Sequence record: PP456878.1
Source: Pseudomonas phage vB_PaePAO1-KEN19
Strand: one strand, 5' to 3'
DNA length: 64,000 nt
Part shown: piece by piece, positions 1 through 26,375 of the stretch
Layout of the letters: the number at the start of each line of letters is the position of its first letter
How positions within the stretch are numbered: the first letter of the stretch is position 1
The notes under the pieces: generated by a model
What the model was told of the DNA's origin: nothing
The model's input: only the letters and a program-made list of their open reading frames with translations
Databases searched by the model: none
Program-made: the position numbers and the translations under genes

Positions 1-198
1 TTGTTGAGCACTATCATCAATATCGATTTTATCTAGCTCATCAGTTAGAATATCTACTTCACTGTCTAGTACCGTATCATCATCAGCTACGGTGTCATCA
101 ATAACGGTTGATTTAGAAACGGCCTTATATAGATTAATAGCGGCAACAGCGAGGGCACCAGTTGAGATAATTGCAGCTGCGATCTTTAGTACTTTCAT
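1..198 (-). CDS. Partial CDS running off the left edge. N-terminus is a signal peptide/TM (MKVLKIAAAIISTGALAVAAINLY) followed by an acidic D/E-rich region
   Basis: ATG at 198..196, preceded on the minus strand by AGGAAAATAGAAA. Open frame to position 1. Hydrophobic N-terminus. Confidence 0.55.
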   Translation of the reverse strand, partial: MKVLKIAAAIISTGALAVAAINLYKAVSKSTVIDDTVADDDTVLDSEVDILTDELDKIDIDDSAQQ

Positions 199-251
199 TT
201 TCTATTTTCCTAATCATTAAGTTTTAATAAGTATCCAATATAGATACATGT

Positions 252-286
252 CTGTAATATAGATCTTAAACTTTTTTTAGTGTAAT
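252..286 (-). promoter_or_regulatory. Conserved 35-bp promoter-like element, copy 1 (minus sense: ATTACACTAAAAAAAGTTTAAGATCTATATTACAG)
   Basis: Near-identical to copy 3. Sits just after a terminator and about 58 nt upstream of the ATG at 198. Confidence 0.5.
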
Positions 287-339
287 AAAAAAATTAATGC
301 GATATAAACCCCCTCCCGAAGGAGAGGGTAATATGTATA

Positions 340-735
340 TCAGTATTCCATCGAAGTTAATACTCGATAATGATCTAATAGTAAATCAATAACAGAGTAA
401 AAAGAATCACAGTTGAATTGCGTATCTATATTTGCAGATACTCCAGTAATACGATTGATAATATGGAGACACTTAATATCTCCACCACGTTGTCTGATAA
501 AAACAACTGCCCACACTGGCCACGTACTATCTGGTGTGGTGTCTTGAATAACTAATCTGTAATACCCATCATTTACTGTTTCAATGGATGCTTGGATTGG
601 ATCATCTGTATAAGCCGATTCTACTTGAACATATTGATCATTATAATAAAACATTTCCTTAATAAGTTTAGCACAGGCATGTAATGTCTCCATTACCTTA
701 GCTGAACTATTTGGATTATATTGTTGATTAAACAT
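340..735 (-). CDS. Hypothetical protein (131 aa)
   Basis: ORF with RBS AAGAGG upstream. Copy 2 of the promoter-like element lies upstream of it and a terminator hairpin follows at 296..332. Confidence 0.6.
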   Translation of the reverse strand: MFNQQYNPNSSAKVMETLHACAKLIKEMFYYNDQYVQVESAYTDDPIQASIETVNDGYYRLVIQDTTPDSTWPVWAVVFIRQRGGDIKCLHIINRITGVSANIDTQFNCDSFYSVIDLLLDHYRVLTSMEY

Positions 736-765
736 GTCATTAACCTCTTAAGATATTGTATGCAT

Positions 766-802
766 AGTAGTAATATATATCTTAATTATTTTTTAGTGTA
801 GT
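766..802 (-). promoter_or_regulatory. Promoter-like element, copy 2 (minus sense: ACTACACTAAAAAATAATTAAGATATATATTACTAC)
   Basis: Diverged copy about 35 nt upstream of the ATG at 735. Confidence 0.4.
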
Positions 803-826
803 TGTGAAAACTTAGAGGAATATACG

Positions 827-1003
827 ATGCCTAGTAAAAGTAAAAAACAACATAACTTCATGGCTGCTGTAGCCAATGATAAGAAGTTTGCTAAGAAAGT
901 TGGTGTACCACAATCAGTTGGTAAAGACTTTGTTGAGGCTGATAAAAATAAAAAGAGTTTTGAAAGTGTTTCACTTAATAGCACTTATAAAGATAGTTAC
1001 TAA
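827..1003 (+). CDS. Small basic protein (58 aa, MPSKSKKQHNFMAAVANDKKFAKK...). Below the 60-aa cutoff, so absent from the ORF track
   Basis: GAGGAA RBS 7 nt upstream of the ATG. TAA stop directly followed by the bidirectional terminator at 1008..1030. Confidence 0.5.
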   Translation: MPSKSKKQHNFMAAVANDKKFAKKVGVPQSVGKDFVEADKNKKSFESVSLNSTYKDSY

Positions 1004-1004
1004 T

Positions 1005-1040
1005 ATAATGCCCTCCCATTGCGGGAGGGCTTATGTTGCT
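1005..1040. terminator. Bidirectional GC-hairpin terminator between convergent genes
   Basis: GCCCTCCC-attgc-GGGAGGGC, followed by TTATGTTGCT. Confidence 0.6.
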
Positions 1041-1045
1041 TATAA

Positions 1046-3538
1046 TTATTTTAATACTAGATTTTTATTAAATACTTCTGGAGTACTAATATTAGCTGGA
1101 TCAAGTACAATAAATTCAGCTTGGTTAAATGCACCGTGTGTTGATTCAAAGTGGCTGATGAAGAACACTTGATTAACAATGCCATTTTCAATTAACCTGT
1201 TAATGAATGGAATAGCATTGGCTCGATGTTGTTCATCAAAAGTCCTGCTAAATTCATCTAAGAAAAGGGGCATGTCATCTAGATGTAAAAATTTCAAGAT
1301 AGCCATTCTAAAAGCAAAATCAACAATCTCTAATTGTGAGTCAGACCCGTATTCAATGTCCGGTGGCTGAACGTCACCACCTGCAATATGCATTGGGAAC
1401 TTATAATCCATGTCATCTTTGTCAACATTAGAAGGTAATACTTCTAACCTATAAGTCCAAATCTCATTGATGTATGCATTTACTAGTTTAACTACTCCTT
1501 GTAAGAAACCTAATAAATAGCGACCAAGAATACCACTTTTTGGTGATAATGCTTTTTCAAGAATAGCTAAATCAGTAGCCATTTGTTGTGCATGGTTAAC
1601 TTCTGATTCTAAAACTTTAATACGTTCTTCATGACGTTCCATTTCACTTAAACGGCTATGTACACTAGATAGTTCTAAGTTAACAGCATCAATCTCCGCT
1701 TGGTATGCCTTATCTACAAAGTTGTCAGCTGTATCCACTATCTTTTTAATAAACTGCTCCCACCGTTCAATAAAAGAATGATACTTATCTTCCCATTCAC
1801 GAATAGCATTACCAGCTTTATTGAAATGAGCTGCTTTTCTTTGTAAGTCAGTTGCTACATGTGTTTTATTATTAATTTCAGTTTCTAGTGCAGTTGTACG
1901 TGCCTTAATGAATCCTAATGCATCTTGATCCATCTCAGCAATAACACGTAGTCGTTGAGCTAATAAAGTAGCTTCCGCATGAGCTTGCTTAGAGACAATG
2001 AGTTGCTGCATTGCATCTCGCCAGTCTAATGCATCATTTATATATTTTGCTGGTGTGCGATACATTACGATATGCTCAGCTACATAGTTCCATAGCGTAT
2101 CAAATTCATTATACTCTTTCGTTAATTGAACGTAGCCATGTACATAACTTACATATTCATTGAAATCAGTCATGTACTGTTCAAGAACCTTGATCTCATT
2201 TGAACAGCTATCCATTGCTTCGTCTAACTTAGCTTTGCGCTCTTCTGCTATTGTGATATCTTGTTCACTAACACCAGGTTTAAATGAATGAGTGCACGAT
2301 GGACAAATAATAGATGCACATTCCTTAAATGAATTTAGGCGTTGATTAATTTGTAAATACATGCCTTCCATGGTTGAGTATTTACTTTTTAATTCTTTTA
2401 GCCTTTCTGCATTTTTAATAGCAGTTTCTTTACTTAAGTAACCATTCTCATTATTAGGAAATGTAGTGAGAAGTTTGATCCAACGATCTGAGAGATCAGT
2501 AAGTTTACCAGATGGATCACCGTTAACAGAAATGTCAACCAAAGGAAATCTACCGGTATACTTCTTATATTTACTAATAGCTTCTTCAGCAATGCGTGTA
2601 TGATGTTCATGTCTGTCCTTAAGTTCTTGTATTTCTTCTGGAGACATACGTTCAGCTGTATTCGGATTAGAGCTTTTTAATTCTTCTAATTCTTCAACTA
2701 AACGTGCAATAACTGCTTGTATAGATTTATATTCTTCAATCTTCTTATTATTTAGTTCTAAGAAAGATTCATACCCATCTACTTTAACTTGAATAGGTAA
2801 CATTGGAAATGACATTAACAATGAACGAGCTTCATCTAAGATAGAATCTAATTCTTTACGTGCAGTGGTTTCATCTCTAAAATGAAGGACACCTTTCTTA
2901 TCACGTGTTTTATAAAGTAAATCAATACGACTAACTAACCGTTGTTTCACTTCTTTCAACTGTGTCATTTCTGAATCATTCAATACCCCATGGTGTTCTG
3001 TGACCAATCGCTTATTAATTGTTTTAACAGTACCTTGCTGGTTAGATAATTCTTTACGTACTTTGTTATAAACATTAAATGCATAATCAAGGTTAACTAC
3101 AGACATTCTAGTTAACCATGCTTTACGTTCATTAGGTTTTAACTTTGTAAAACGCATCTTACCTGTCAACATTTCATGCAGTTCTCGGTTTAACCCGAAA
3201 TGCACCATTACAAGTTCTTCTTGTTCTTTAAAGGTATGACCACTATTTAATTCTTCATCATTACATAAAAAGGAATGATGTCCAGTGCCACGGTTATATT
3301 TAGAAATTAATTTATAGTCTTTACCATTTGCATGACAATGGAAATGTTTCTCGCCACCTTGCTTGAAGTTTGAACTGCTAGATACAACAGGTGTCAGTTC
3401 ACTAATAATAGATGATTTGCCAGAACCATTACTACCAAGTATAACCATCATCTGTTTGCTTGGAGTCCATTCAAAATAATGTGTATTATTGGCCATCAAC
3501 CTAGTATAGCCAATTAGCTTAAGTAGCTTGATCTGCAT
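1046..3538 (-). CDS. SbcC/Rad50/SMC-like P-loop ATPase with a long coiled coil (830 aa)
   Basis: N-terminal Walker A 'GSNGSGKSS'. Very long heptad-rich middle. C-terminal 'LFLDEFSRTFDEQHR' looks like an ABC-type Walker B/D-loop. Confidence 0.6.
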   Translation of the reverse strand: MQIKLLKLIGYTRLMANNTHYFEWTPSKQMMVILGSNGSGKSSIISELTPVVSSSSNFKQGGEKHFHCHANGKDYKLISKYNRGTGHHSFLCNDEELNSGHTFKEQEELVMVHFGLNRELHEMLTGKMRFTKLKPNERKAWLTRMSVVNLDYAFNVYNKVRKELSNQQGTVKTINKRLVTEHHGVLNDSEMTQLKEVKQRLVSRIDLLYKTRDKKGVLHFRDETTARKELDSILDEARSLLMSFPMLPIQVKVDGYESFLELNNKKIEEYKSIQAVIARLVEELEELKSSNPNTAERMSPEEIQELKDRHEHHTRIAEEAISKYKKYTGRFPLVDISVNGDPSGKLTDLSDRWIKLLTTFPNNENGYLSKETAIKNAERLKELKSKYSTMEGMYLQINQRLNSFKECASIICPSCTHSFKPGVSEQDITIAEERKAKLDEAMDSCSNEIKVLEQYMTDFNEYVSYVHGYVQLTKEYNEFDTLWNYVAEHIVMYRTPAKYINDALDWRDAMQQLIVSKQAHAEATLLAQRLRVIAEMDQDALGFIKARTTALETEINNKTHVATDLQRKAAHFNKAGNAIREWEDKYHSFIERWEQFIKKIVDTADNFVDKAYQAEIDAVNLELSSVHSRLSEMERHEERIKVLESEVNHAQQMATDLAILEKALSPKSGILGRYLLGFLQGVVKLVNAYINEIWTYRLEVLPSNVDKDDMDYKFPMHIAGGDVQPPDIEYGSDSQLEIVDFAFRMAILKFLHLDDMPLFLDEFSRTFDEQHRANAIPFINRLIENGIVNQVFFISHFESTHGAFNQAEFIVLDPANISTPEVFNKNLVLK

Positions 3539-3587
3539 GATTAACCCTTAATAATGTCTTACTCTATAGAGTTAATAACCCTAGTAA

Positions 3588-4760
<1,173 letters not shown>

Positions 4761-4764
4761 AGAA

Positions 4765-4800
4765 CATAATGCCCTCCCACTATGGGAGGGCTTATGCTGT
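4765..4800. terminator. Bidirectional palindromic terminator (AACATAATGCCCTCCC-acta-TGGGAGGGCTTATGCTGTT)
   Basis: Extended palindrome between the PAAR gene and the convergent minus-strand gene. Confidence 0.65.
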
Positions 4801-5987
4801 TAAATACCTTCATTCTCATAATGAGTAATGCAGTGACTAACAAATGTTAACCAGACTTTAAGAGTTACTGCTAACCAATGGGTGTAGTTACCAACAGGTT
4901 CTGCTAATTTTCGGGATATCTCAGCGAGCATATTAATTGCCTCGCCATTTGCCCTTCCCAATAACTCACTACGTTCAGCTAGCTGTCGAATTGAATCATC
5001 TACAACTACCTTAACTGTTTTATATTCTACTTCGCCTTGTTTAGCACGTTCAGCGATCGTTAAAATATTAGCAATACCAGTTACAATATCACTTAGCGTA
5101 GTTACAGAAGGTACTTCTATATCTCGTTCAGTGCTATCAATTGCATTGATTTGTAACTCTGTAAATTCCATTGTAAATGTATTGCGAACCATTTCTAGTG
5201 CAGATTGTTTATTAGTAACTGATGTAGCTATATGGTCAGCATCAGTATAAACAAATGCACGATTAGCTGGTAAAATATAACTTCTATGGGTACCAGTAGA
5301 AGTAGTCTCACCTTTCTTTAATGGCTCATCCCCTGGCGGCGCTTTAAAATCACGACGCACTATATCGGCAAAAGATTGTAATAACTCATCAATGATTTCT
5401 GTAGTGGTATCTTCGCCTTGATTATCTAAGATATTCAATGCTTGTCTACTAATATTTCGAGCAATATTAGAAGTCATTTTAGGATAAGTCATTAAAATAT
5501 AATTAGTGACTTCTTTGATATCTAAAAGATTATCTGGTCGATCACCAATGAATTCACCGTTAATAGATAATCGCTGTAAACCAGAAACAGTCAATCGAGT
5601 ATTAGTCGTACGATTACCTAGTTTTGCAAGTCGCCTAGATAATTTTTGCTGTGTTTTACGCACATGTGAAATACTGCCAGTAAACTTGACGTAGAATGCC
5701 GTGAGTGTTTCGATTACCATTCGCACAATATCTCGTGCAGCCTTAGCAGCTCGAACTAATGCATCTTTTAAAGCACGTAGTGTAATTATACCGCCTTCTT
5801 TTATGGAGAAGGCGGGATCGATACTTTCTAAAGCAAATGACATCGCTTTAGACAGGTCTTCAGATGCTACGTCACGTCCATCTAGCAGATCTTGATAACG
5901 AGCTAATCGATGGCGATATGCTTCAACAGAAACAATAGCCTCTTTGAGTTCATTATTGGTAATTAATAGTTCTGCATATGTGGACAT
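4800..5987 (-). CDS. Virion protein, paralog of 5997..7565 (candidate head/inner-body protein)
   Basis: Shares 'ALESxD', '(I/V)R(M/I)V(I/V)ET' and a W-containing hydrophobic C-terminal segment with the adjacent 522-aa ORF. Confidence 0.6.
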   Translation of the reverse strand: MSTYAELLITNNELKEAIVSVEAYRHRLARYQDLLDGRDVASEDLSKAMSFALESIDPAFSIKEGGIITLRALKDALVRAAKAARDIVRMVIETLTAFYVKFTGSISHVRKTQQKLSRRLAKLGNRTTNTRLTVSGLQRLSINGEFIGDRPDNLLDIKEVTNYILMTYPKMTSNIARNISRQALNILDNQGEDTTTEIIDELLQSFADIVRRDFKAPPGDEPLKKGETTSTGTHRSYILPANRAFVYTDADHIATSVTNKQSALEMVRNTFTMEFTELQINAIDSTERDIEVPSVTTLSDIVTGIANILTIAERAKQGEVEYKTVKVVVDDSIRQLAERSELLGRANGEAINMLAEISRKLAEPVGNYTHWLAVTLKVWLTFVSHCITHYENEGI

Positions 5988-5996
5988 TATGTTTAC

Positions 5997-7565
5997 CTAT
6001 TCAGTTTCCTTGATTTCACTATCAACTAGTTTCTCAAGTACGGTGATCCAGATCATCACACATTTAAACAGATCATTACTAGCTTCAGTGGTGCCAGTTA
6101 GATAAGCCTTACCAACATTGGTTGCTTCTTTATCAGTCATCTGTGCAATGATTTCAGCAGTTGACTCTTTAGAGATACCGCGAATATTATTTAGATGATT
6201 TAGGAGGTTATGAACTGCTTTTAGCTGAGCCATAACAACATTCTTATCAACTAATAGTTCAACAGTAATTCCATAGTTGGGTTTACCCGGTGCATCAAGA
6301 ATGGAGAAGTCTACCGCAGCTTTGTCTTTACCAAAGGTATAAACACGATTACCGGGCACAACCGGGCTAGCATATCGGACACCATTAGCATTAATTTTGG
6401 TAGCTGTTCCAAACATACCTTTAGCTAAAGCCAGTGCTTTATCATCAGTTGTTTTTCCAGCTAAGGCTGCTTTAAGAGCACGCAGTCCATTCTTTTCAAT
6501 GCTGTCAAATAGATTACGGATTACAGTAACCCCCTGAACAGGGTCTACACCAACCCAACTCTCACCAGTGTCACCTAGAATCAGATCGCGTGGAATTGCG
6601 ATAGTACGAACTTCATCGGGTAGTTCATTCTCTTTAACGCGTTTCATGATCTTATTAACGCGTTCTATTTGATTACTGACATTCTGGCGAATACGTTGAT
6701 AAGTTTCTACAACAATGCGAATTAGCTTCTTAATGAAATCTAATGCAACAGTAGATACTTCTTTTGCTTTAGCTTGTAGATTATCTAATACTTCAATAGA
6801 AGCTTTAGGCCGAGTTAGCGGTGATATAAAGGATTCCATTGATGGCACAGTGTTATTAAAATATTTATAGTCAAATGACTCTAGCGCGATGCTAATAGCT
6901 TTAGCTAGATCATGATCGACATCATGCCCGCGATGATGGCGGTTACTAACTAAACCAATATAGTTTTCTAATGCAGTTTGAACAGATTCTACTTTAGTCA
7001 GTTCATTTACAATTGTAAACATTTCAACTGATAATGATTCTAGATGATCATCTAGTTCACCAGTGATGATATCTTCAGTAGTTTCCAGTAGTGCGGTGGC
7101 ATCATAGCCATGGTCTAGCTGCTCAGTCTCATTGGCTTCCATAATAGAAATGTCTTCATTCGATGGGACATCTGCAATTTGGTGTGGTTTTTTGGTACTA
7201 ACATTAAGATCTTTAGTATCACTTACTTTAGTGATCATTTCATCAGCTGTTTCAGTGATTTCGTTTTCAACACGATCACCTTTAGCTACTTGGAATTCTT
7301 TTAGCCCTTGACTAACATGAATCTTCTTATCATTGATCTTATCAGCAGTTCCATCAACATCTGGACCTTTGCATACGTCAATTGGGGTATTGGTAACGAC
7401 ATTGGTAACTTCATCACATGGATTTACTTTACCATCTTCATCATCTTTTAATTGTTCTGGTAATTCTTTACCAACATCAAGATTGACATTCTTATCTTCA
7501 GCATCAGAAACGCGCTCAAGACTTGCAAAGAAATCCATTGCGGGAACTGTTTTTTTCTTAGCCAT
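5997..7565 (-). CDS. Virion protein, paralog of 4800..5987, with an acidic N-terminal extension
   Basis: Motifs AISIALESFD and LIRIVVETYQRI align with the downstream paralog. RBS GGAG. Confidence 0.6.
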   Translation of the reverse strand: MAKKKTVPAMDFFASLERVSDAEDKNVNLDVGKELPEQLKDDEDGKVNPCDEVTNVVTNTPIDVCKGPDVDGTADKINDKKIHVSQGLKEFQVAKGDRVENEITETADEMITKVSDTKDLNVSTKKPHQIADVPSNEDISIMEANETEQLDHGYDATALLETTEDIITGELDDHLESLSVEMFTIVNELTKVESVQTALENYIGLVSNRHHRGHDVDHDLAKAISIALESFDYKYFNNTVPSMESFISPLTRPKASIEVLDNLQAKAKEVSTVALDFIKKLIRIVVETYQRIRQNVSNQIERVNKIMKRVKENELPDEVRTIAIPRDLILGDTGESWVGVDPVQGVTVIRNLFDSIEKNGLRALKAALAGKTTDDKALALAKGMFGTATKINANGVRYASPVVPGNRVYTFGKDKAAVDFSILDAPGKPNYGITVELLVDKNVVMAQLKAVHNLLNHLNNIRGISKESTAEIIAQMTDKEATNVGKAYLTGTTEASNDLFKCVMIWITVLEKLVDSEIKETE

Positions 7566-7600
7566 TTTAAAACTCCGGAGTATTAAAGTTCATAAGGTTG

Positions 7601-8260
<660 letters not shown>

Positions 8261-8299
8261 TCATTCAATTGAGCACTATAGTTACTTTAAGACGAAATA

Positions 8300-8340
8300 A
8301 TAGCGGATCCACTTTAAAGCAGATCCGCTTTAAATTAAAA
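8300..8340. terminator. Hairpin terminator GCGGATC-N13-GATCCGC flanked by T-rich runs
   Basis: 7-bp stem with U-rich tracts on both strands. Confidence 0.5.
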
Positions 8341-8808
8341 TGCTTGACCAGGACAAACCCAAATATAATCACCAGTTGTTTGGCCATTAGGTCTGACTAA
8401 TATAAATCGTTGTCCAACCGTACCGCGCACAGAAGCATCTTCAAATGGAAAACCTCTAGGTATAACTAATTTACCATCTTTGTCTTGTGCCCAAAAACTT
8501 AATGAGTCCCTAGTCTCTTTGCCATTAATAGGATCTTTTTCATAGAAACTCAATACGAAAGTAAATCCATTTGGCAATGATGTATTATATTTAATAACAG
8601 TGCCAATAAATGTAGGTGTTGTTGGTGATGATACATATCCATCTTCTTCTTTAAAGATAATGTTAGTATCAAAATAATCTTTAACATCTAACAGATTATA
8701 AATAACATCATCTCCATAAAGAGGGTGTTTCATTTTTAATGGATATTTATTTATTGTTGTGTAAAATGCACCAGGAATGAAATTATCACATTTTGATGTA
8801 TCTGCCAT
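8335..8808 (-). CDS. Hypothetical protein (157 aa)
   Basis: ORF in a tight tandem series; terminator hairpin downstream at 8303..8328. Confidence 0.55.
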   Translation of the reverse strand: MADTSKCDNFIPGAFYTTINKYPLKMKHPLYGDDVIYNLLDVKDYFDTNIIFKEEDGYVSSPTTPTFIGTVIKYNTSLPNGFTFVLSFYEKDPINGKETRDSLSFWAQDKDGKLVIPRGFPFEDASVRGTVGQRFILVRPNGQTTGDYIWVCPGQAF

Positions 8809-8811
8809 GAT

Positions 8812-9231
8812 TTACTCCTGTACATCCGTCATTACACGTCCTTCGATAGACCAGTATAATTCATTTTCTAATGAATCATAAACCGTTCTATATTCACATG
8901 CCTCACCTTTGTTTAATTGACAGTCAACTTTGAATAAACGGTTACCAACTAAACGATTACCATAAGCACGAATCACCAATAATCCATTTGTCTTATTGGC
9001 AATAGTAAATACATATTTACCTTTTTTAGTATCATAGGCAGTAGCTGGTAAATTTACTATAAATGGACTATCTGAATTATCATTATCAGTATAATTAGGA
9101 TCTTCAACGATAATGTGCGCATTAAGATAAGTTGAGTCAATATCAAACTTACGTCCAGTTGCTTTAGACGTGTCAATTACTTTCATAGGTGGGTAGATAT
9201 AACAGAATTCGCTCATGATTGCATCCACCAT
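8812..9231 (-). CDS. Hypothetical protein (139 aa)
   Basis: ORF 3 nt from the downstream gene; 19-nt overlap with the upstream gene. Confidence 0.55.
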   Translation of the reverse strand: MVDAIMSEFCYIYPPMKVIDTSKATGRKFDIDSTYLNAHIIVEDPNYTDNDNSDSPFIVNLPATAYDTKKGKYVFTIANKTNGLLVIRAYGNRLVGNRLFKVDCQLNKGEACEYRTVYDSLENELYWSIEGRVMTDVQE

Positions 9232-10157
9232 GACAGACCAAGTGTATACATCGCTTTAGTTGTTTCATTATAACAGATAAATCGAGTATAGCCATTATTA
9301 GGTAAGAAACCAGTACTTGTATACATTGGCCTAATGATACTCTGTTGATAAGCAGTAGCTATATCAACATCTTCATTAGTTAAATTCAGTATTCGATATT
9401 CAGCACCAGCCTTAAGTTTCTCGCTATTGCCAGAAGGTAGTATAACACCTTTAGGTGACTCTGCTATTTGAGCATCATCTGGTTTAGGCATTAGTACCAA
9501 TAGCCTACCTATAGCTTGATCATAAGGCGGACAAATCCAATTACCAAATTTACCTGTTTCATTATCAACTGTAATTGTAAATGGTACAAGCAATTGCGGG
9601 AATATCTGATAGCCATCTGTTGGTTCTGGATCAGGATCTGGGTCCGGCGGATCAGGGTCAACATCACCACCTGAATGTAACCATAGATTTAACCATCCTC
9701 TCCACCATAGTGATGAATCAATAGCTTTAAATAAAAAGTTTGGTTGTTTCTTACCACCGGTATACGTTATATTAGATATTTCTAACCATATGTCACTAGC
9801 AGTAAAATTTAATTTAGCTTTATTAGCAACATACGCAACTAAAGCTTCGCTATTTTTTAATCCTTGAACAACCGTTACTTCCGATGCTGTCCAATATGGA
9901 TTTTTAATATAATCATTAACATTAAAACGATTATAAAGAAAGTCGTAATAAACAGCACTATTAGTTGCATCTTTTTGAATACGAACAAATGCCCTATTAG
10001 GCTCATCGATAGTTGCACTATCCATTACCATTACGATAATGGACTTATCTTCAGATAAACCTAAATCCGGATATGCTGTTGTAACTGCTTTGAAGAAACC
10101 TATTCGTGGATCTTGTCCACGCGGGTTATCCGCCAGATTAAGAGTGAATCTACGCAT
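9213..10157 (-). CDS. Hypothetical two-domain protein with a (DP)n linker 'DPDPPDPDPDPEP'
   Basis: 314 aa; RBS AAGGTGG. Proline/aspartate linker between two globular halves. Confidence 0.6.
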   Translation of the reverse strand: MRRFTLNLADNPRGQDPRIGFFKAVTTAYPDLGLSEDKSIIVMVMDSATIDEPNRAFVRIQKDATNSAVYYDFLYNRFNVNDYIKNPYWTASEVTVVQGLKNSEALVAYVANKAKLNFTASDIWLEISNITYTGGKKQPNFLFKAIDSSLWWRGWLNLWLHSGGDVDPDPPDPDPDPEPTDGYQIFPQLLVPFTITVDNETGKFGNWICPPYDQAIGRLLVLMPKPDDAQIAESPKGVILPSGNSEKLKAGAEYRILNLTNEDVDIATAYQQSIIRPMYTSTGFLPNNGYTRFICYNETTKAMYTLGLSWWMQS

Positions 10158-10179
10158 TGCGCCACCTTTAGATTAATAT

Positions 10180-10212
10180 AAGAGAGGGCCTTTGCCCTCT
10201 CTCATTTATGCA
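10180..10212 (-). terminator. Terminator GAGAGGGC-cttt-GCCCTCTC after gene 10213..11550
   Basis: 8-bp GC stem; minus strand continues TTATATTAATCT. Confidence 0.6.
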
Positions 10213-11553
<1,341 letters not shown>

Positions 11554-11728
11554 TTAATCCTCATAATTAGAGCGCGATGGGTTTCCATCTATAAAATCAG
11601 TCTGTTCTAGTTGTGTTAAAATAAAAAGTCTGGTATTATGAGCTTTACGTAATACCCTTGTAACAGTCTATTGATAGAAATGCCAATACTGGCTTTTATG
11701 GGTAGGCATAGTACTAACAGAGGTCATC

Positions 11729-12019
11729 ATGCTCGGTTTGACTATTAAAGCCTTGCTCTTCGTTTGGCCATTCCTTAAGAGGGCTATCTTTGGTGATAGA
11801 ACTATTAAGGAAGTGTTGCTGGAAAACAAACACGTCACGGCGATGTTGATCCTAGTTGTAATATTACTAGGTACCTTATTCATAGTGACTAGTGAGTTGA
11901 AGTCAGTTAAAGCAAGCAACTGGGCCGTTAAAGCCGAAATGGATCGACTCAAGAAAATGACGCCTGAGAAGGCTGAAATGCTTGAGCGCCGCCGTCGTTT
12001 AAATGACTTGCTAAAGTAA
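11729..12019 (+). CDS. Small membrane protein with two predicted TM helices
   Basis: Hydrophobic segments LTIKALLFVWPFL and AMLILVVILLGTLFIVTS, followed by a basic/coiled tail. Confidence 0.5.
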   Translation: MLGLTIKALLFVWPFLKRAIFGDRTIKEVLLENKHVTAMLILVVILLGTLFIVTSELKSVKASNWAVKAEMDRLKKMTPEKAEMLERRRRLNDLLK

Positions 12020-12027
12020 GTACCAAA

Positions 12028-12441
12028 TTGGTGGATCACATGTCAAGAAAGTTCTTTCTAATACTCCTACCACTTATCAGTGGCTGTGTTTATACGCCAC
12101 ATGAGTACCACACGCACAACACGACTGTGGTCCAATATGAGCACTCCTCTTCTACAGATGATCATACATCTGTTGTTACAACTAAAGAAGAGGTAATACA
12201 AAAAGTTCTGCCTACACCTAAAAAATATAGTAAGGATACTAGTAAGAAGTGTATGGTTTTCGAACTACCAAGAAAGAAACCGGTACCGCCAACACCGATT
12301 ATTACAGAGTTTATAGAAACTCCGGAACAAATCGATATCTTGTTGACTGACTATATAAAAGAATTAAAGTCACATATTGTATCTGAGCGCGCTAAAATTG
12401 AGCAAGCATATGAAGAATGGCGTGCAAAGTGTGATGAGTAA
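12028..12441 (+). CDS. Lipoprotein (signal peptide with lipobox LISGC)
   Basis: 'MSRKFFLILLPLISGC' is a canonical lipoprotein signal. Placed 8 nt after the 2-TM protein gene. Confidence 0.55.
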   Translation: MVDHMSRKFFLILLPLISGCVYTPHEYHTHNTTVVQYEHSSSTDDHTSVVTTKEEVIQKVLPTPKKYSKDTSKKCMVFELPRKKPVPPTPIITEFIETPEQIDILLTDYIKELKSHIVSERAKIEQAYEEWRAKCDE

Positions 12442-12496
12442 TTTACTTGCTAGAATTATTATCTAGTTTAGTAATCGATCACATGAGGAAACAATA

Positions 12497-13945
12497 ATGT
12501 CAGACGGTATGGTTTTATACACTGACGGATCATTCCGACAGGGTAAAGCTGGTTGGGGTATTCATGGTTATACCTATGAAAATGTTGCAATGAAATCTAA
12601 AGCAGCCACCAAACAGCAACCAACAGCTAAGGGATACTTAGATGTAGGTGCAGATGAGACATGCACTGTTTTAAATTATATTGATGCATTTGGTAGTGTA
12701 ACTAATAACCCTACTAATAATACAGGTGAGCTAACCGCTGCAATTGAGGCTTTCAAAATAGCCCATGAAGCAGATGCACCTAGACTAACGATGCTCATGG
12801 ATAGTGAATACGTTAGAAAAGGTATGACCGCATATTTACCCAAATGGATTAAGTCCAATTGGATTAAATCAGACGGTACACCGGTAGCAAACCAGGACCT
12901 ATGGAAACAGATGGTCGAACTAAAAGCTAAATGGGAAGAAACTAATAAACCATTAAGCATCCAATGGGTCCGCGGTCATAACGGAGACATTGGTAATGAA
13001 AAAGCTGATGCTAATGCTAAGCTTGGTTCGGGACAGAATAATGATAAGCCAGTGATGGTTTCGGTTAAAGGCGAAGAAATTAACAAACTTAAAAAACAAG
13101 TTGTTAATCCACTTATCCTCGAAAGTAGGTTACTCTTCGCCATTAACTCTGGAGAAGAACCAGATGGGTTCTATTACACCTATAATTTAGGTCGTATGCA
13201 TAACTATGGTCATAAACCAAAAGACACTGCTAAAGATAAATTAGCTAAAGCTGATTTAATTTTAGGGCGTCGTATCTCTGAAGCAACCTTCAGTGTATAT
13301 AAGGCAAATGAGCCAGATGAGTATCTCCAGTTACTAATTAATATGCATACAGAAGCACTGGGTACTGAAAATCCAGAACTGGGTATCATCAATTTGGCAA
13401 ACGCATACCGTGCAACCATTCGACAGAAAATTGAATCCATGGGACTACCTGCTCTAGTCGTATGGAAAGATATCAATGTTTTGTCGACGCCAACAGATGA
13501 ACTCATTAGTCGGACTCTTAATCCACCACGTATGGCAAATGACGCTGTAGCTACATTTAATGTTATGCGCAGTCGTCTTGAAGATTACTTGGCTGGTAAA
13601 CTTGGAGAGTCGGTTGGTATTATTGATATTACCGAGCACTTCTTCGAGGAAGTCGCAAAGGGTAAGAAAGTTGGCTATCAACTACTTAAGACGATTACAT
13701 CTAATACAGGCTTTGTAGAAGTTCCGATCACATTTAAAGATCGTAAGATAAAATTAAAGCTTGTATTAAATATCGATATTCCAAGTAGAAACCAATTAGC
13801 TCGTATTGGAGCTAATAAAGTTAAAATGGAAATTCTTGTAGTAGCTGAAGGCCCATATTCTTATTCATATTCAATTGTGTTCGTGACTGATGATGGTTCA
13901 GCTATTTATCAATCACCCTATACACAATTTATTCTCCCAAAATAG
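12497..13945 (+). CDS. RNase H1 domain (aa 1-180) fused to a 300-aa C-terminal domain of unknown function
   Basis: YTDGS...NNTGELTAAIEAF...MDSEYV...GHNGDIGNEKADANAKLG give the DEDD catalytic set of type-1 RNase H. Confidence 0.75.
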   Translation: MSDGMVLYTDGSFRQGKAGWGIHGYTYENVAMKSKAATKQQPTAKGYLDVGADETCTVLNYIDAFGSVTNNPTNNTGELTAAIEAFKIAHEADAPRLTMLMDSEYVRKGMTAYLPKWIKSNWIKSDGTPVANQDLWKQMVELKAKWEETNKPLSIQWVRGHNGDIGNEKADANAKLGSGQNNDKPVMVSVKGEEINKLKKQVVNPLILESRLLFAINSGEEPDGFYYTYNLGRMHNYGHKPKDTAKDKLAKADLILGRRISEATFSVYKANEPDEYLQLLINMHTEALGTENPELGIINLANAYRATIRQKIESMGLPALVVWKDINVLSTPTDELISRTLNPPRMANDAVATFNVMRSRLEDYLAGKLGESVGIIDITEHFFEEVAKGKKVGYQLLKTITSNTGFVEVPITFKDRKIKLKLVLNIDIPSRNQLARIGANKVKMEILVVAEGPYSYSYSIVFVTDDGSAIYQSPYTQFILPK

Positions 13946-13955
13946 TGGGTATTCC

Positions 13956-14375
13956 ATGAACCTTATTAGCAGATTCAAAAAGTCGGTTAAGAATGGTTTC
14001 AGGGCAATTTGGATTAAGCTCTGGGACTATGCTGATCCCGAACTAAAGCGGATGTGCGTCATGGCGTCACTGTACTCCGTTATAGTACAGTGTAAGACAA
14101 ATGAGTGTGAAAAGATCTCTCATTTGAATTCTAACATGAAACTAGTACGCGATGAAGCTGCCTTACGACTCCCTATTCATTATGGGCCGTACGTATGGAA
14201 AGGCGTGATAGCAATCGATAAGATTGATAAAGCAGATCTAACCACTGATCAATTTTTCATGAGGCTTATTCGTAAGACTCCGTGTTGGATGAAATATGCT
14301 GATGATGCAACTTTTTTAAAGGATTTAAAAACCCTCTTTAAATTAAGTTTACATGAGAAGTGTATTCCAAATTGA
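13956..14375 (+). CDS. Hypothetical protein. Start trimmed to the ATG at 13956 to avoid overlap with the RNase H gene
   Basis: The ORF track starts at 13890, overlapping by 56 nt. The internal ATG sits right after the upstream stop. Terminator follows at 14391..14412. Confidence 0.5.
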   Translation: MNLISRFKKSVKNGFRAIWIKLWDYADPELKRMCVMASLYSVIVQCKTNECEKISHLNSNMKLVRDEAALRLPIHYGPYVWKGVIAIDKIDKADLTTDQFFMRLIRKTPCWMKYADDATFLKDLKTLFKLSLHEKCIPN

Positions 14376-14384
14376 TTGGTACGA

Positions 14385-14420
14385 CATAATGCCCTCTCCT
14401 TTGGGAGAGGGCTTATGCTG
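14385..14420. terminator. Bidirectional palindromic terminator (CATAATGCCCTCTCC-tttg-GGAGAGGGCTTATGCTGTT)
   Basis: Between convergent genes. Confidence 0.65.
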
Positions 14421-15335
14421 TTATCCAATGATTTCACGAAGAATATCTTCAGTGGCTTTCATTGTGTTTGCAGTCTCAACAATCTTGGTAAAGAGTGTTG
14501 AATAACGTTCAACATGGTCTGCTGCCCATGTAACCCCTTCAATTAATGTCTGTAATAGCTCTGGAGAGGTGTCAGAGTTACTATCCTTAACATCCTCCAT
14601 AAAGCTATCAATTAATTGACTAAGCGCTTCTGAAGCACGTTTTACATCATTTGGACGAACCCGTGATAAAATGCTACGAATATCGTTCATTTTCTTTGTT
14701 GCGTCAACAAATGAATTTAATGATGGGTAAAGCTTACCAAACTCAGCTGTACTTGACCGGTTGTCACTGTCATAGAAAGAAGCATCTTTAGCAAGATCAT
14801 TGATCGATGCCATTGCAAATGAATTAGCAAAGCCACGCTTATCCATTCGATCAGCACGCTGTTGTAGATAATATCCAAGTTGTGCTTTAACCGGGTCTAA
14901 TACCGCTGGAATAATAGTGGCCATTTCCTTAGCTTCTGTTAATAGATAATCAACATAGTCTGGAATCTCACCATTAAAACCAACTGGTTGTGGCACGATT
15001 GTATTTGCTACTTCTAAATAATCAATGTGTGAAACTAAATGGCGCATCTGCGCTGGATGGAACTCAGGAATAATTTGATTACTCCAGTTAGTCATCGACG
15101 TAAATGCATTACGAGCAGCGATAGCAAAATTAGCACCGCGTTTATTGATAATGTTAATAGCGTTTGTTGCGAAATTAGCTTCTTGAGAAATAGTCTCAGT
15201 AATATCTACAAGCTGTTGTTTTGGATCAACTTGTACTAAACTAATATCATCATTAACAATATTATCAGATTCAATTAGATCCTGACAATCATTTTCTAGT
15301 GAAATACTTTTAGCGTATTTATGGATGTTAAACAT
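14421..15335 (-). CDS. Hypothetical virion protein (304 aa). Possible distant paralog of the 4800/5997 family
   Basis: C-terminal W-containing segment resembles the paralog pair. Bidirectional terminator downstream. Confidence 0.5.
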   Translation of the reverse strand: MFNIHKYAKSISLENDCQDLIESDNIVNDDISLVQVDPKQQLVDITETISQEANFATNAINIINKRGANFAIAARNAFTSMTNWSNQIIPEFHPAQMRHLVSHIDYLEVANTIVPQPVGFNGEIPDYVDYLLTEAKEMATIIPAVLDPVKAQLGYYLQQRADRMDKRGFANSFAMASINDLAKDASFYDSDNRSSTAEFGKLYPSLNSFVDATKKMNDIRSILSRVRPNDVKRASEALSQLIDSFMEDVKDSNSDTSPELLQTLIEGVTWAADHVERYSTLFTKIVETANTMKATEDILREIIG

Positions 15336-15432
15336 GTCTTAATTTCCTTGCGCAAGGATTGTTGAATATGTAGACATAAAATTACTCTCCAAATCAATTA
15401 ATTGACTGTTTAACTTAAAAAATGGAGTCAAC

Positions 15433-16872
15433 ATGTTTGGTAAACATTTCGAACGTCCAGCTTTCCGACCGGCTCTTAACATCGGATGCCTTATGGACAT
15501 TTCAACTGGTAAGTATGAACAAGGTAAGCATGGTGAAATGATTCTAAATGGTGGTATGGGATCACTAACTGGTATTGCTTCACGACCTAACAATTTTAAA
15601 ACTGCATTAGGTATCTACCTCATGGCAATGATGCGCCGTGCTTTCCCCGGTGCACATGCAATGACTTACGATACAGAAGGTACATTAAACCCAGGTGCTC
15701 GATTTACATCTTTAGCACAAGCTTATCCTGAGCTAGCTGCTATCGATTGGGAAAATGATGAGCAATACATGTTTACTGACTTATCTCGTTATACTGGGGA
15801 TGAGTGGTTCAAAATCTTCCGAGATGCATTATCTGAAAAAGAGAAAGCTGAAAAAGATTATCTACGCACTACCCCATTTCTTGATGTGAATGGTAACAAT
15901 AAGAAAGCACTGTACCCAACTGGTGGATTCATTGATAGTTTCTCAAAGTTCATTGTCTCAGCTGTGTCTGAAATGTATGCTAAAAATGCTATCGGTGATT
16001 CTAAAGTAAACACTGATGCGATGACTAATGGTAAAGCCAAGAATCAGTTATTTAACCAACTGCCGCAGATCTGTGCTAAAACCAGTACATACATGATTCT
16101 CACTGCACACGTTGGAGATATTATTCAAATTGAGATGTACCCTACTGATAAACGTAATCTATCGCATATGAAGAAGGATACGGTTCTTAAAGGGGTATCA
16201 GGTGGTTTCTACTCTCTGCCGAATAATGTGTTTTCTATTGAATCTAATAAACCGTTAGTCAATAAAGAAAAAATGCCTTTATATCCAATTGACAATTCAA
16301 CTGCTATTGAAGGCGATACAGATCTACGTATTCTAGAAGTTATTAACTTACGTGGTAAAGGTGGAATTACTGGTCTACCATTCCATCTCATTGTTTCACA
16401 GACTGAAGGTATTCTTCCATCACTATCGGAATTCCATTATTGCCGTGAAAATGATTGGGGGATTGGTGGTAATAACATTAACTACTTCGTTGAGCTATGT
16501 CCTGATATCAAACTAAGCCGAACCACTGTTCGTAAGAAATTGATGGATAACCCTGCTCTACAACGAGCTGTTGAAATCCAATCTGAAATGCTACAATTAA
16601 TTCAATTCCAACGTTGGAATCTTGGAGATTATGTAGTAACTCCAGCCGAACTATATGCTGATCTTAAAGTAATGGGTTATGATTGGAATATTATTCTTAA
16701 TAATACCCGTGGCTATTGGATGTTCGAAGAAGACGAACAATTTAGTGATAAAAAATTCCTATCCACGTATGACCTACTACGCATGCGTAAAAGTGAATAT
16801 AAACCATACTGGATGACTGACGAAGAAAAAGCTAAAATTGTACCTCTTGAACTAGCTAAAGCAAAAGCTTAA
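15433..16872 (+). CDS. UvsX/RecA-like recombinase
   Basis: 'GGMGSLTGIASRPNNFKTALGIYLMAMMRRAFPGAHAMTYDTE' aligns with the T4 UvsX 'GGMQSGLLILAGPSKSFKSNFGLTMVSSYMRQYPDAVCLFYDSE' segment as I remember it. Downstream 'IDSFSKF' and 'YMILTAHVGD' fit the RecA core. Confidence 0.65.
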   Translation: MFGKHFERPAFRPALNIGCLMDISTGKYEQGKHGEMILNGGMGSLTGIASRPNNFKTALGIYLMAMMRRAFPGAHAMTYDTEGTLNPGARFTSLAQAYPELAAIDWENDEQYMFTDLSRYTGDEWFKIFRDALSEKEKAEKDYLRTTPFLDVNGNNKKALYPTGGFIDSFSKFIVSAVSEMYAKNAIGDSKVNTDAMTNGKAKNQLFNQLPQICAKTSTYMILTAHVGDIIQIEMYPTDKRNLSHMKKDTVLKGVSGGFYSLPNNVFSIESNKPLVNKEKMPLYPIDNSTAIEGDTDLRILEVINLRGKGGITGLPFHLIVSQTEGILPSLSEFHYCRENDWGIGGNNINYFVELCPDIKLSRTTVRKKLMDNPALQRAVEIQSEMLQLIQFQRWNLGDYVVTPAELYADLKVMGYDWNIILNNTRGYWMFEEDEQFSDKKFLSTYDLLRMRKSEYKPYWMTDEEKAKIVPLELAKAKA

Positions 16873-16948
16873 TGTTAGTATAGATGTTATCGCCAGTTTT
16901 AAAATAACTAGGGGTCAATAAGATCCCTAGTTATGTCAGGTTTGGTAT

Positions 16949-17299
16949 ATGAATGTTTACACTTATCAGATAGCTAAATATAAGTTAGTTATAGAGAAAG
17001 GAATAAAACCGCTAGACATAACTGTTAAATCAGGTGCATATCAACTCGCACCTACGTGGTTAATGGTTATGGGACATAAGAAAGGAATTATATCAAGTGA
17101 TGAATACACTGAAGCATATCTCAGTATGTTAGAGCAATCATTGATTGATAATCCAGAATTCTTTAAATGGTTCTTCCAATTAGAGGAAGTAGCATTAGGT
17201 TGTTATTGTCGCGCTGGTAATTTCTGTCACCGGCATTTATTAGTAGAATGGCTTGAAACAAAAACAGAGGTCATTTACTGTGGTGAGATATCAAAGTAA
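16949..17299 (+). CDS. Small protein with a C-terminal CxC...CHRHLL motif (DUF488-like?)
   Basis: 'GCYCRAGNFCHRHLLVEWL' resembles the DUF488/YeaO-type C-terminus. Weak, from memory. Confidence 0.35.
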   Translation: MNVYTYQIAKYKLVIEKGIKPLDITVKSGAYQLAPTWLMVMGHKKGIISSDEYTEAYLSMLEQSLIDNPEFFKWFFQLEEVALGCYCRAGNFCHRHLLVEWLETKTEVIYCGEISK

Positions 17300-17322
17300 A
17301 ATAAAGACCCTAAGGAACTATA

Positions 17323-17643
17323 ATGAAAACTACAGAAGATTATCGTTTAACACTTTGTCAACGTCTACGAATGTTTGATGTTGAACTATCAGAAGATCTA
17401 TTACGTCGATTACCAGTGTGTACAGACGTACCCACTTTATCAGCTTGCTTTCAGCAACTATTAGCTCAATACCCTAGTCAGACATTGACAGCTAGAACCA
17501 CCATTGATGATTCAGTCACCTTTGAAGTATGGTATGCTAATTTTCTAGCCAACATATTACCAATTCTTAAGAGGCACAGGTTACCTCCATGTACTGACCA
17601 GAATTCAATACCTGTCTATCAAGGGGTATCTCGCTCAAGCTAA
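17323..17643 (+). CDS. Hypothetical protein (106 aa)
   Basis: ORF with an upstream terminator hairpin at 16908..16930. Confidence 0.5.
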   Translation: MKTTEDYRLTLCQRLRMFDVELSEDLLRRLPVCTDVPTLSACFQQLLAQYPSQTLTARTTIDDSVTFEVWYANFLANILPILKRHRLPPCTDQNSIPVYQGVSRSS

Positions 17644-17675
17644 TGGTATGTTAAACAACCTTAAAGGAAATTACC

Positions 17676-18350
17676 ATGACTAAACGAGAATTGGTAGAAA
17701 AAGAATGCCTATGGATTATTGACATGTTTCTACCTGGTAGTAGTAATGTTGATATCTATAAAGAAATGTTTGCACGAATGAATGATGAGGAATTTGAGGA
17801 GTGGATTAATAAGTTAGATTCTGGTGAAGAGATGTTGGCATTATATGCTCCTAACTTATGCACTAAGCCTAAATTAACTATTAAGCAAAATTATAAAGTT
17901 GCTAAAGCGATTGGTCATAATTTATTCCAACACATCATTTTAACTGATCCAGGTACTGGCCAGGTATATCGAACTGCTAATAAACATTTAGTTGGTTTAA
18001 TACCAATCCGTCGTCAAGTACAAATGCTTGAGAAAAAGAAAAGTATTCCAGGTTCTAGTCACGTGATTGACCAGAGGTCAGGGCAGGTAACTGGTGATTC
18101 TAAAGGATCCCGTATGTCTGCACCAGAGATTCAAGTTAACGCTTCAAAAGGTCTCCGTTATTCCATGATCGAATTCATGAAACTGCGTGGTGGCGACCAG
18201 AAGGCGTATAATGCAATGAACCGCTCTATTATCGAAACTGGTAGTGCTTCTGTTGATTCCATCATGTCCACTTATGATACTACTGTGCAATCTAATAAAA
18301 CATTTGCATGTTATCTAAAAGGCATGATGCTACAAAATAACTTGGTGTAA
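17676..18350 (+). CDS. Hypothetical protein (224 aa)
   Basis: ORF; RBS AAAGGAAA. Confidence 0.55.
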   Translation: MTKRELVEKECLWIIDMFLPGSSNVDIYKEMFARMNDEEFEEWINKLDSGEEMLALYAPNLCTKPKLTIKQNYKVAKAIGHNLFQHIILTDPGTGQVYRTANKHLVGLIPIRRQVQMLEKKKSIPGSSHVIDQRSGQVTGDSKGSRMSAPEIQVNASKGLRYSMIEFMKLRGGDQKAYNAMNRSIIETGSASVDSIMSTYDTTVQSNKTFACYLKGMMLQNNLV

Positions 18351-18352
18351 TT

Positions 18353-18859
18353 ATGAATAATCGCCAGATTTATGAAGATATGTGCGAAGCTTTAATTGTA
18401 TCTAATACTGAGTTAGTAAATGGATACAGTGCTGAAATCATTGCGGATATTTTGGATTTACTAAATAACTGGAGTACCAATACTCATTGGTATCACATTG
18501 CTGATAAAACAGTTATTAGGGATATCTGGAATTTATTCCGTAATAAAGGTAATCGTCTTCAACCTATCTTAAGTTTAGTTAGTCGATTTAAGATGGCTGT
18601 TAATGATTGGGATGGTGTGGTGAAATTACTAGCTGATTCTATTTATCCTTATCAGCCTAATTCAACTATTGTTGACCAAGAAATGTTAGCGCGATTAATT
18701 CCACGAAAAGAATTAACTGACATTTTATACCAAAATGATTGGTTAGTTTGGATTATTTGCCAATGTTTAAATATCCGTTATATTACTAATATGGTTGAAT
18801 CTATCCCAGTTCAAGCTAAGCCATCTAAAAAGAAGGCGGTAAATAATAATGTTTCGTAA
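18353..18859 (+). CDS. Hypothetical protein (168 aa)
   Basis: ORF 3 nt after the previous stop. Confidence 0.55.
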   Translation: MNNRQIYEDMCEALIVSNTELVNGYSAEIIADILDLLNNWSTNTHWYHIADKTVIRDIWNLFRNKGNRLQPILSLVSRFKMAVNDWDGVVKLLADSIYPYQPNSTIVDQEMLARLIPRKELTDILYQNDWLVWIICQCLNIRYITNMVESIPVQAKPSKKKAVNNNVS

Positions 18860-19565
18860 AATCTTAATTGATCTTGACTCACTATTAGATACACGGTTAG
18901 GAACCATTAGGTTACTAAATAAAGATGCAGCTAATAAGCTTGTTACCAATGGTCAAATTTACTGGCATAGGGAAATGGATGATTGGACTAAACTAACAGA
19001 TGGTTTAGTAACTAATGAACAATTTGTCGAAGCTTATTCTAAACGTGGTGGTGAAAATACTGCTGACACTATCAATAGTTCTATATTCACTGGTATCATT
19101 CCATTTATTATTCAATTAATAGCCCAATCAGATTTGAATAGATTAGATGGTATAGTTAATGCTAATTTTGAAACATGTCTTGAAGTCAATATCTGGCCAT
19201 ATGAATTGACACCAGATGCTCAAGATGAATTACTATACTGCTTACATAAGTACATTGGTGATCATATTCAGATCACCCTGATTAATACTCCATTAACAGA
19301 CCTTACTTGTTCTAGATTAAACTCTATCTATTCAATGGCGATTATGTATAATTTTGGAGAATGGTGTAAAACCCATGTTCTTGAATTAGGACAAGTGTTG
19401 ATGCCTGACTTTACTATTATTGGTCCAAAGCTATTTGAGAAAGATGTAAGTGAATTAGCTGTTGAAGATAAACAGTTTATTATCATGGATTTCCAGTTAA
19501 AGCATAAACTTAATATCGACTTTGATTTCATCGATGCTGAATACTTTTCCATGTTTAAGCCATGA
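18849..19565 (+). CDS. Hypothetical protein (238 aa)
   Basis: ORF overlapping the previous stop. Followed by a plus-strand terminator at 19575..19610. Confidence 0.55.
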   Translation: MFRKILIDLDSLLDTRLGTIRLLNKDAANKLVTNGQIYWHREMDDWTKLTDGLVTNEQFVEAYSKRGGENTADTINSSIFTGIIPFIIQLIAQSDLNRLDGIVNANFETCLEVNIWPYELTPDAQDELLYCLHKYIGDHIQITLINTPLTDLTCSRLNSIYSMAIMYNFGEWCKTHVLELGQVLMPDFTIIGPKLFEKDVSELAVEDKQFIIMDFQLKHKLNIDFDFIDAEYFSMFKP

Positions 19566-19573
19566 TACCCAAT

Positions 19574-19610
19574 AGAAAGCCCTAATAGGGCTTTCTATGC
19601 TTTTTTTAGA
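19574..19610 (+). terminator. Plus-strand intrinsic terminator (AGAAAGCCCTAATAGGGCTTTCT then TTTTTTT)
   Basis: Hairpin followed by a U7 tract. Confidence 0.7.
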
Positions 19611-19639
19611 TATAACTGGTATGACGGCATGGTTAACAA

Positions 19640-19690
19640 TGAATCAACCTTAAAAGACAAAATAAAGCCCTCCCCGAAGGGAGGGCAATA
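19640..19690 (-). terminator. Minus-strand terminator after the collagen-like fiber gene (GCCCTCCC-TTCG-GGGAGGGC, then TTTATTTTGTCTTTT on the minus strand)
   Basis: Hairpin with UUCG loop plus a U-tract. Confidence 0.7.
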
Positions 19691-19697
19691 TGTCGTT

Positions 19698-22600: not shown

Positions 22601-22979
22601 CCCAACGACCTTTTACAGGGGGATCTTCATTACCTAGCGGTGATTCCCATACCCATAGCCGATCTTCAACGAACCAAGCATCACCGACATTATGCGTATC
22701 TAATGGTTTAATATCTTGTTCGAATGTTGCTAGATCAACATTAGCGATAATGTTAATAGCCGGACCAACTGGGCCAGGGGGACCTTGATCGCCATCTTTA
22801 CCCGGCTGACCATCTTCACCCTTTAATCCAGGTATAGTAACAGGATCAACGAAAGTGGTATTAAGACCCACCCCGGTAGAAACCGGGATGTGTCCATTAA
22901 CTACAGAAGTGGGTTCATCAATTGATGATACCCGTTTGGGGAGTTCCCCGTTTACATAATCTTCAAATGCAGAAGCCAT
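19698..22979 (-). CDS. Long tail fiber with about 8 collagen-like G-X-Y tracts separated by about 30-aa beta-modules, plus one Phage_fiber_2-like repeat
   Basis: GEDGQPGKDGDQGPPGPVGP, GPEGPEGPQGKDGEIGPEGPQGEP and similar tracts. 'SAFQVALDNGFTGTEGEWLISL' repeat. TAATG stop/start overlap with the upstream fiber gene. Confidence 0.8.
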   Translation of the reverse strand: MASAFEDYVNGELPKRVSSIDEPTSVVNGHIPVSTGVGLNTTFVDPVTIPGLKGEDGQPGKDGDQGPPGPVGPAINIIANVDLATFEQDIKPLDTHNVGDAWFVEDRLWVWESPLGNEDPPVKGRWVETGSLRGPDGTGLVIRGRWPNNLELPKTESNKPGDAYSWNNQLWAWMLISGNNPPENPTIDDYDWFPVTPQGERGPEGPEGPQGKDGEIGPEGPQGEPAMPFTIKDSLPSPADLPDPSVAKESEAYLVTMEAGKPEHLFIFVKGTWSDLGTFQGPEGPQGKPGNTGDPGPDGKQGEPGPQGRNLEVVKAVETADDLLTTTGVEQYQGVSVRSTNTVYVLTGQDPTVDISWTAMGSFRGPQGPEGPQGEDGEQGLPGEPGAQGKSAFQVALDNGFTGTEGEWLISLHGKNVVITGAVANEAALPADAPDQAAYFTQDTSTLFVKIDGNWVNSGTHRGPKGEDGAPGKDGDQGPEGPEGPEGPQGPAGEPIQIIAAIDTPEDTPPEALADNQWKAYTVKSTGEVFVNMDGSRWTSIGIMAGPQGKPGEGLNIKGVLTDASQLPKKDTDPDLVTGDSYWVETNEGTMLYTYQGQEIDGYIGPINLNGEQGIQGVEGPQGPEGKQGGGLLIIYVGDDAGKPVASADNVGKGIAIRTNTEGQVEVFVSIDTEGTFTWESLGVLAMGPQGPEGPEGKQGVPGIPGKTGQKGERGSSWVILPEGQTAPTSIDGNRGDWCIDKTGTVWYKDANWVVFYKLMSVPVSEVDPEDVDKKMVRYKLGWTELPVDEVVDAEVGVFYGRRKATADGAVEWTAIELPTPAIDAVPSPVVNAQYVRKGIAGGETEWATITFPEIPSDVVRDTAQATKPQGRVAGNWVDVAPLQTDDTLMGMQNGEWVAVPAAVIGEVPSEGANGTNYVREKTASGSKWTPVTIIVDQADATSGQLFLRNAAAKSWTLFQGPNNDVTADGDWLRSRTGTNITWKKLDKSFDAYSLKSSTFTGTALTLTPANQQCYRVQTAANQTITLENGPVDRMITAVLVLLGKVAMPTLSSAVLQWNNGTPVIVDDLGDTKTVLTLLWDGTNWIVSKGAVI

Positions 22980-25553: not shown

Positions 25554-26375
<822 letters not shown>

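Follow-up and report, generated by a model that had tools for sequence, protein, structure and literature searches.

The window examined here, a stretch of 64,000 nt from Pseudomonas phage vB_PaePAO1-KEN19 (PP456878.1), is about 99.6% identical to the genome of phiKZ (AF399011.1) and runs in the reverse orientation, with exact anchors placing phiKZ 108624..172630 at window positions 64000..1. The genes that a preliminary description of this DNA had called minus-strand genes are therefore leading-strand genes of phiKZ. The first 6 kb of the window match 46 Pseudomonas phage records at an identity of at least 95%. Three copies of an AT-rich element are present, all of them intergenic and on the + strand of phiKZ. 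According to the annotation, copy 1 is followed by PHIKZ166.1 and copy 2 by PHIKZ166, and copy 3 is located between PHIKZ120, which encodes the major capsid protein, and PHIKZ121.

The near-identical repeat and the third, diverged copy that had been noticed by eye are borne out by a 35-mer pattern search of the window, in which ATTACAYTAAAAAAAGTTTAAGATCTATATTACAG is found exactly at 252..286 (-), copy 1, and at 51959..51993 (-), copy 3. These two copies are identical at 34 of 35 positions and differ by a single C/T exchange. With up to three mismatches allowed, ATTACAYTAAAAAAAGTTTAAGATCTATATTACAG has no further site in the window, no match in 100 shuffles, and an expectation of zero by chance. 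Copy 2 (~766..802), aligned in the same register on the core TATATTAC (770..777), needs no gaps and shares 28 of 35 positions (80%) with copy 1. The 8-mer TATATTAC by itself is not enriched in the window (9 observed, 6.5 expected), and its other six occurrences there lie within long open reading frames, lack the upstream context, and all score below 8 bits with the weight matrix described below. Thus, it is the extended element, rather than its core, that is special, and a matrix of 46 positions was for this reason used instead of counting cores.

Copy 1 extends from 246 to 291 (-), with its core TATATTAC at 261..254. It serves PHIKZ166.1 (1..198, -; ATG at 198), a gene that is truncated by the start of the window and is the first to be driven by this copy, as well as PHIKZ167. 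Copy 2 (762..807, -; core 777..770) serves PHIKZ166 (340..735, -; ATG at 735), a gene for a protein of unknown function that is the first of its early unit, with read-through into PHIKZ166.1 and PHIKZ167. Between the two copies, after PHIKZ166, lies the intrinsic-type terminator hairpin T078 (311..328, -; -17.1 kcal/mol, z -3.7), 22-24 nt upstream of copy 1. Its published 3' end at 172327 corresponds to window position ~304 and is the end of transcription unit TU127 (Putzeys et al., bioRxiv 10.1101/2023.10.13.562163). A terminator hairpin had been described directly in front of each copy; on the element's own strand, this holds for copies 1 and 3 and not for copy 2. The latter lies between divergent genes, facing PHIKZ165.1, and has no such hairpin directly upstream, the nearest one (1010..1030) being ~200 nt away. 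On either strand that hairpin is scored as a terminator, and it separates the convergent genes PHIKZ165.1 and PHIKZ165. PHIKZ166 also contains, in antisense orientation, the published late-class promoter P090, with a start site at 172165 on the phiKZ minus strand (window ~466, +); its transcript spans PHIKZ165.1 and ends at T077.

Copy 3 (51953..51998, -; core 51968..51961) has on its upstream side PHIKZ120 (52114..54357, -), the late gene of the major capsid protein (Pfam PhiKZ_MCP, E 5e-228), which is followed by the terminator hairpin T057 (52002..52025, -; -24.3 kcal/mol, z -5.9), 8 nt upstream of the copy. T057 is listed as intrinsic with a published 3' end at 120629 (window ~51996), and capsid transcripts stop there. 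Downstream, the operon PHIKZ121-125 occupies 45871..51917 (-), and none of its genes is marked as structural in the annotation. PHIKZ123 (48785..50416, -), which carries the PHROG label 'polymerase', encodes the beta-N-like subunit of the non-virion RNA polymerase and aligns end to end with PDB 7OGP chain E (543 of 543 residues, 1267.9 bits). All subunits of that enzyme, gp123 among them, are early gene products (PMC4666361). Antisense knock-down of gp122 and gp124 has been reported to have a strong effect on phage transcription, which fits a transcription-related early operon comprising gp121-gp125; a full-text literature search on PHIKZ121 and gp121 returned nothing relevant. The predicted start of copy 3 falls at window 51954/51953 (phiKZ 120671/120672), 36-37 nt 5' of the ATG of PHIKZ121 (51917). 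The 5' untranslated regions of copies 1, 2, and 3 measure 48, 28, and ~36 nt, respectively. Folding of these predicted leaders shows no significant structure, and an Rfam search of the window returned no RNA family. The distances from the element to the next start codon, previously given as 35-58 nt, are in fact 53, 30, and 41 nt.

The early class of phiKZ promoters, for which 28 (Ceyssens et al. 2014), 32 (Wicke et al. 2021), and 18 members (Putzeys et al. 2024) have been reported, shares a common AT-rich element and is ascribed to the virion RNA polymerase that the phage injects. Its consensus consists of AT-rich blocks near -30 and -20, TATATTAC at -15..-8, and TG at the start site, and all three copies fit it. 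Two of them are published promoters. In Table S3 of the ONT-cappable-seq study (bioRxiv 10.1101/2023.10.13.562163), P091 has the sequence of copy 1 and is listed with a start site at 172385 (+), window 246, as "early promoter, Wicke et al. 2021", and P089 has the sequence of copy 2 and is listed as an early promoter with a start site at 171868 (+), window 763. For both entries, validation came from dRNA-seq of cells infected for 10 min, and transcripts of gp166 and gp166.1 are present at that time in the published data. TU127 and TU128 both start at P089 and end at T078 and T080, respectively. The mapped starts of copies 1 and 2 thus lie 6-8 nt downstream of the 35-nt element, and 7-8 nt past the C of TATATTAC, an offset that is equal in 13 other published early promoters. 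Copy 3 matches the class equally well and is absent from the list of Putzeys et al. The element had been likened to an "early/middle" consensus of phiKZ; the early half of this comparison is right, while the published middle motif differs, being an AT-rich/TAC element ~22-24 nt upstream of the start. Reading the three elements as promoters is correct, and for copies 1 and 2 it describes an ordinary feature that has already been published.

The matrix was trained on 13 published early promoters with the three window copies excluded. Copies 1, 3, and 2 score 40.8, 38.0, and 32.4 bits, respectively, compared with 25.7-48.5 bits for the training sites, and the rest of the 64,000-nt window has no other match of at least 8 bits. 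In the whole phiKZ genome, 32 sites reach at least 12 bits, every one of them on the + (leading) strand; copy 3 ranks 17th. In 20 random first-order Markov genomes, by comparison, the mean was 0.35 sites of at least 12 bits, and none reached 25 bits. A hand comparison with the annotation places 31 of the 32 sites between genes, with the core beginning 35-102 nt before a start codon and a median predicted 5' untranslated region of 34 nt. Since nearly all of the sites are intergenic, the suspicion that such elements occur equally often inside coding regions does not apply, and the count and orientation leave the promoter reading standing. Matrix sites are found upstream of every gene cluster of the non-virion polymerase (gp54-55, gp68, gp70.1-74, and gp121-123).

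Taken together, we regard it as highly probable that the three elements are phiKZ promoters of the early class and that copy 3 starts an early unit comprising gp121-gp125. The early status of the genes downstream is indicated for gp123 by the published kinetics of the polymerase subunits and for gp166 and gp166.1 by their transcripts at 10 min. As the capsid gene is late and its transcripts end at T057, copy 3 would start a separate unit of a different temporal class, and its position 8 nt past T057 would mark the boundary between the late capsid unit and the early gp121-125 unit.

The most serious alternative is that copy 3 is a silent or very weak match in vivo, with gp121-125 transcribed by read-through or from another promoter. 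The ONT-cappable-seq tables are in line with this possibility: Table S3 contains no start site between P069 (119075) and P070 (130258), and hence none for copy 3, and no transcription unit containing PHIKZ122-125 is listed. This absence carries little weight, since the study recovered 16 of the 32 early promoters described before, missing about half of them, and since the highest-scoring site of the genome (70339) is likewise missing from its table of start sites. The score of copy 3, moreover, is intermediate among those of the validated promoters, and gp123 is needed early, yet the gene upstream is late and ends in a strong terminator.

Conservation of the locus also argues against a silent copy 3. 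Phages PS119XW, PhiPA3, 201phi2-1, Viktualia, Phabio, Psa21, and Noxifer, which together with phiKZ represent eight genera, all keep the same succession of genes, namely helicase, gp119, capsid gene, gp121-like, gp122-like, and gp123-like, and their spacers between the capsid gene and gp121 were aligned. In this spacer the columns A-T-n-T-A-T-A-T-n-A are invariant, with the core reading TATATTAC or TATATCAT, and the TG downstream of the core is invariant as well. The stem of the T057-type hairpin varies in sequence, its pairing being kept by compensatory changes, and the hairpin tail GGCTTTATG..GT (window 51994..52005, -) is invariant in the eight genera. The remaining sequence of the spacer has diverged, so that the core and TG persist although their flanks do not. 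The invariant tail fits the conserved phiKZ terminator motif of Putzeys et al. and also includes TATG, the published late-promoter initiator motif. The blocks upstream of the core are specific to each phage among the related Pseudomonas jumbo phages, and scores with the phiKZ matrix therefore drop to 2.5-25.6 bits in the other genera. Even so, the post-capsid site is the best match to this matrix in six of the seven orthologous loci (7.4-7.8 kb each) and the second best in that of Psa21. The latter locus has another early-type match at 7661..7668, after the gp123 homologue and upstream of a gp124-like gene, which scores slightly above the post-capsid site. Such a comparison is possible for copy 3 only, because no relatives of the DNA flanking copies 1 and 2 are detectable beyond phages of the phiKZ species. 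With these observations in hand, a silent copy 3 appears quite improbable, and the copy very probably belongs to the known set of phiKZ early promoters. It would accordingly be active in vivo at the position predicted from the offset of the mapped sites.

It is much less probable still that the elements are promoters of the host sigma-70 holoenzyme, or of the non-virion polymerase that transcribes middle and late genes. The element does resemble bacterial sigma-70 extended -10 promoters in having an AT-rich, hexamer-like core ~10 nt upstream of the start, and its TATATT is similar to a -10 hexamer. It differs from them in lacking a properly spaced -35 element: a sigma-70 scan found no -35/-10 pair with a spacing of 16-18 nt at copies 1 and 3, and its sole match near copy 2, TTCACA-18-TAAGAT, is weak and has its -10-type hexamer too far from the mapped start, at a distance of 16-21 nt on the upstream side. 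Because there is no proper -35/-10 pair and phiKZ infection is reported to be resistant to rifampicin and independent of the host polymerase, recognition by sigma-70 is unlikely; the genome of phiKZ also has no recognised sigma homologue, according to published work. As to the non-virion polymerase, the start region of copy 2 (763..766, -) reads TATG with the mapped start on the G, and therefore also fits the published late motif, which is TATG at the start site. The early consensus in general terminates in TG at this position. The start sites of copies 1 and 2 were, however, seen 10 min into infection and assigned to the early class, and the purified non-virion polymerase has been published as robust on late promoters and inactive on middle-promoter templates.

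The preliminary description proposed, from the location of copy 3 after the major capsid gene, that it is a strong restart promoter for downstream head genes. Such a continuation of late transcription has in its favour that copy 3 follows T057 closely and in the same orientation, but it is almost certainly wrong, given that capsid transcripts stop at T057, that the motif is of the early class rather than the late class of the capsid genes, and that the genes it precedes are PHIKZ121-125, with their polymerase subunit, and not head genes.

The early-promoter reading agrees with the published model, in which the virion polymerase arrives together with the phage DNA and initiates at early promoters, leading to expression of the non-virion polymerase. 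The enzyme acting at the three elements would be this multisubunit virion polymerase, which is carried inside the capsid and injected along with the genome. It would recognise the extended AT-rich element and begin transcription at the conserved TG or directly after it, 7-8 nt beyond the core, with no need for the host RNA polymerase. Copies 2 (P089) and 1 (P091) would define nested early units, gp166 and gp166.1-gp167, divided by T078 acting as a leaky terminator. [quoted passage not shown] At the level of sequence, the data fit this model; our literature search returned no in vitro demonstration of the virion polymerase recognising the early motif.

A comparable strategy is known from coliphage N4, in which, as in phiKZ, an injected virion polymerase transcribes the early genes, a second polymerase among them. 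The virion RNA polymerase of N4 is a single-subunit enzyme that recognises DNA hairpin promoters. In contrast, the virion enzyme of phiKZ is multisubunit, as published, and its element is by inspection not a hairpin, containing only a 6-bp AGATCT palindrome in some copies.

A further comparison is offered by 201phi2-1 (Serwervirus), whose early promoters resemble those of phiKZ, with blocks near -10, -20, and -30 and the core TATATTAC or TATATCAT, and which has the orthologous site after its capsid gene, in front of gp201. The first 150 kb of its genome (EU197055.1) were scanned with a matrix built from that phage's own sites, the site before gp201 being left out. This matrix yields 17 matches, all on the + strand, and gives the site before gp201 a score of 30 bits. 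The same site shares a 26-nt identical run with a site just upstream of gp124, where the 201phi2-1 transcriptome paper reported an early promoter. Neither near gp203 nor near gp129/130 did the paper find an early promoter, and the site before gp201 is not reported in it. Early-type cores are seen in EU197055.1 at 71703..71710, upstream of gp128-gp130, and at 132452..132459, upstream of gp201-gp203, both of which are operons of non-virion polymerase subunits. The cores at 132452 and 71703 suggest that the promoters near gp203 and gp129/130 were missed rather than being absent.

Among the 31 intergenic matches in phiKZ, two sequence subfamilies can be distinguished. The larger one (17 sites), yAyTAAA...TTTrAGATyTATATTAC, includes all three window copies together with the sites before gp53, gp54, gp68, gp70.1-74, and gp121-123. 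The smaller one (14 sites), TATTyAAA...ATTTTAAACAGTATATTACAAATGTGA, precedes small hypothetical genes. In 201phi2-1, the sites divide in the same way and with the same assignment of genes, and in both phages the GAGATyTATATTAC type precedes every operon of the non-virion polymerase as well as the nuclear-shell gene. We can speculate that this type could represent a functional sub-class, differing for example in timing or strength, beyond shared ancestry alone, and that copy 3 may be an experimentally unmapped early promoter that at least eight genera of nucleus-forming Pseudomonas jumbo phages have kept. As a joint proposal the two ideas are tentative, and we consider it rather unlikely that both hold.

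The early promoter class has been in the literature since 2014, and it was rediscovered here by reading the sequence without tools; members of the class already serve as engineering parts in phiKZ. A small practical value lies in the reassignment of the post-capsid copy to an early operon with a polymerase subunit instead of to head genes. The long-read start-site maps of phiKZ and 201phi2-1 would seem to miss conserved early promoters that adjoin polymerase genes. If the tentative proposal is true, the lack of an early promoter near gp203 and gp129/130, a puzzle in 201phi2-1, would be resolved, and copy 3 would provide for early expression of the beta-N subunit from inside the late structural region of the genome.
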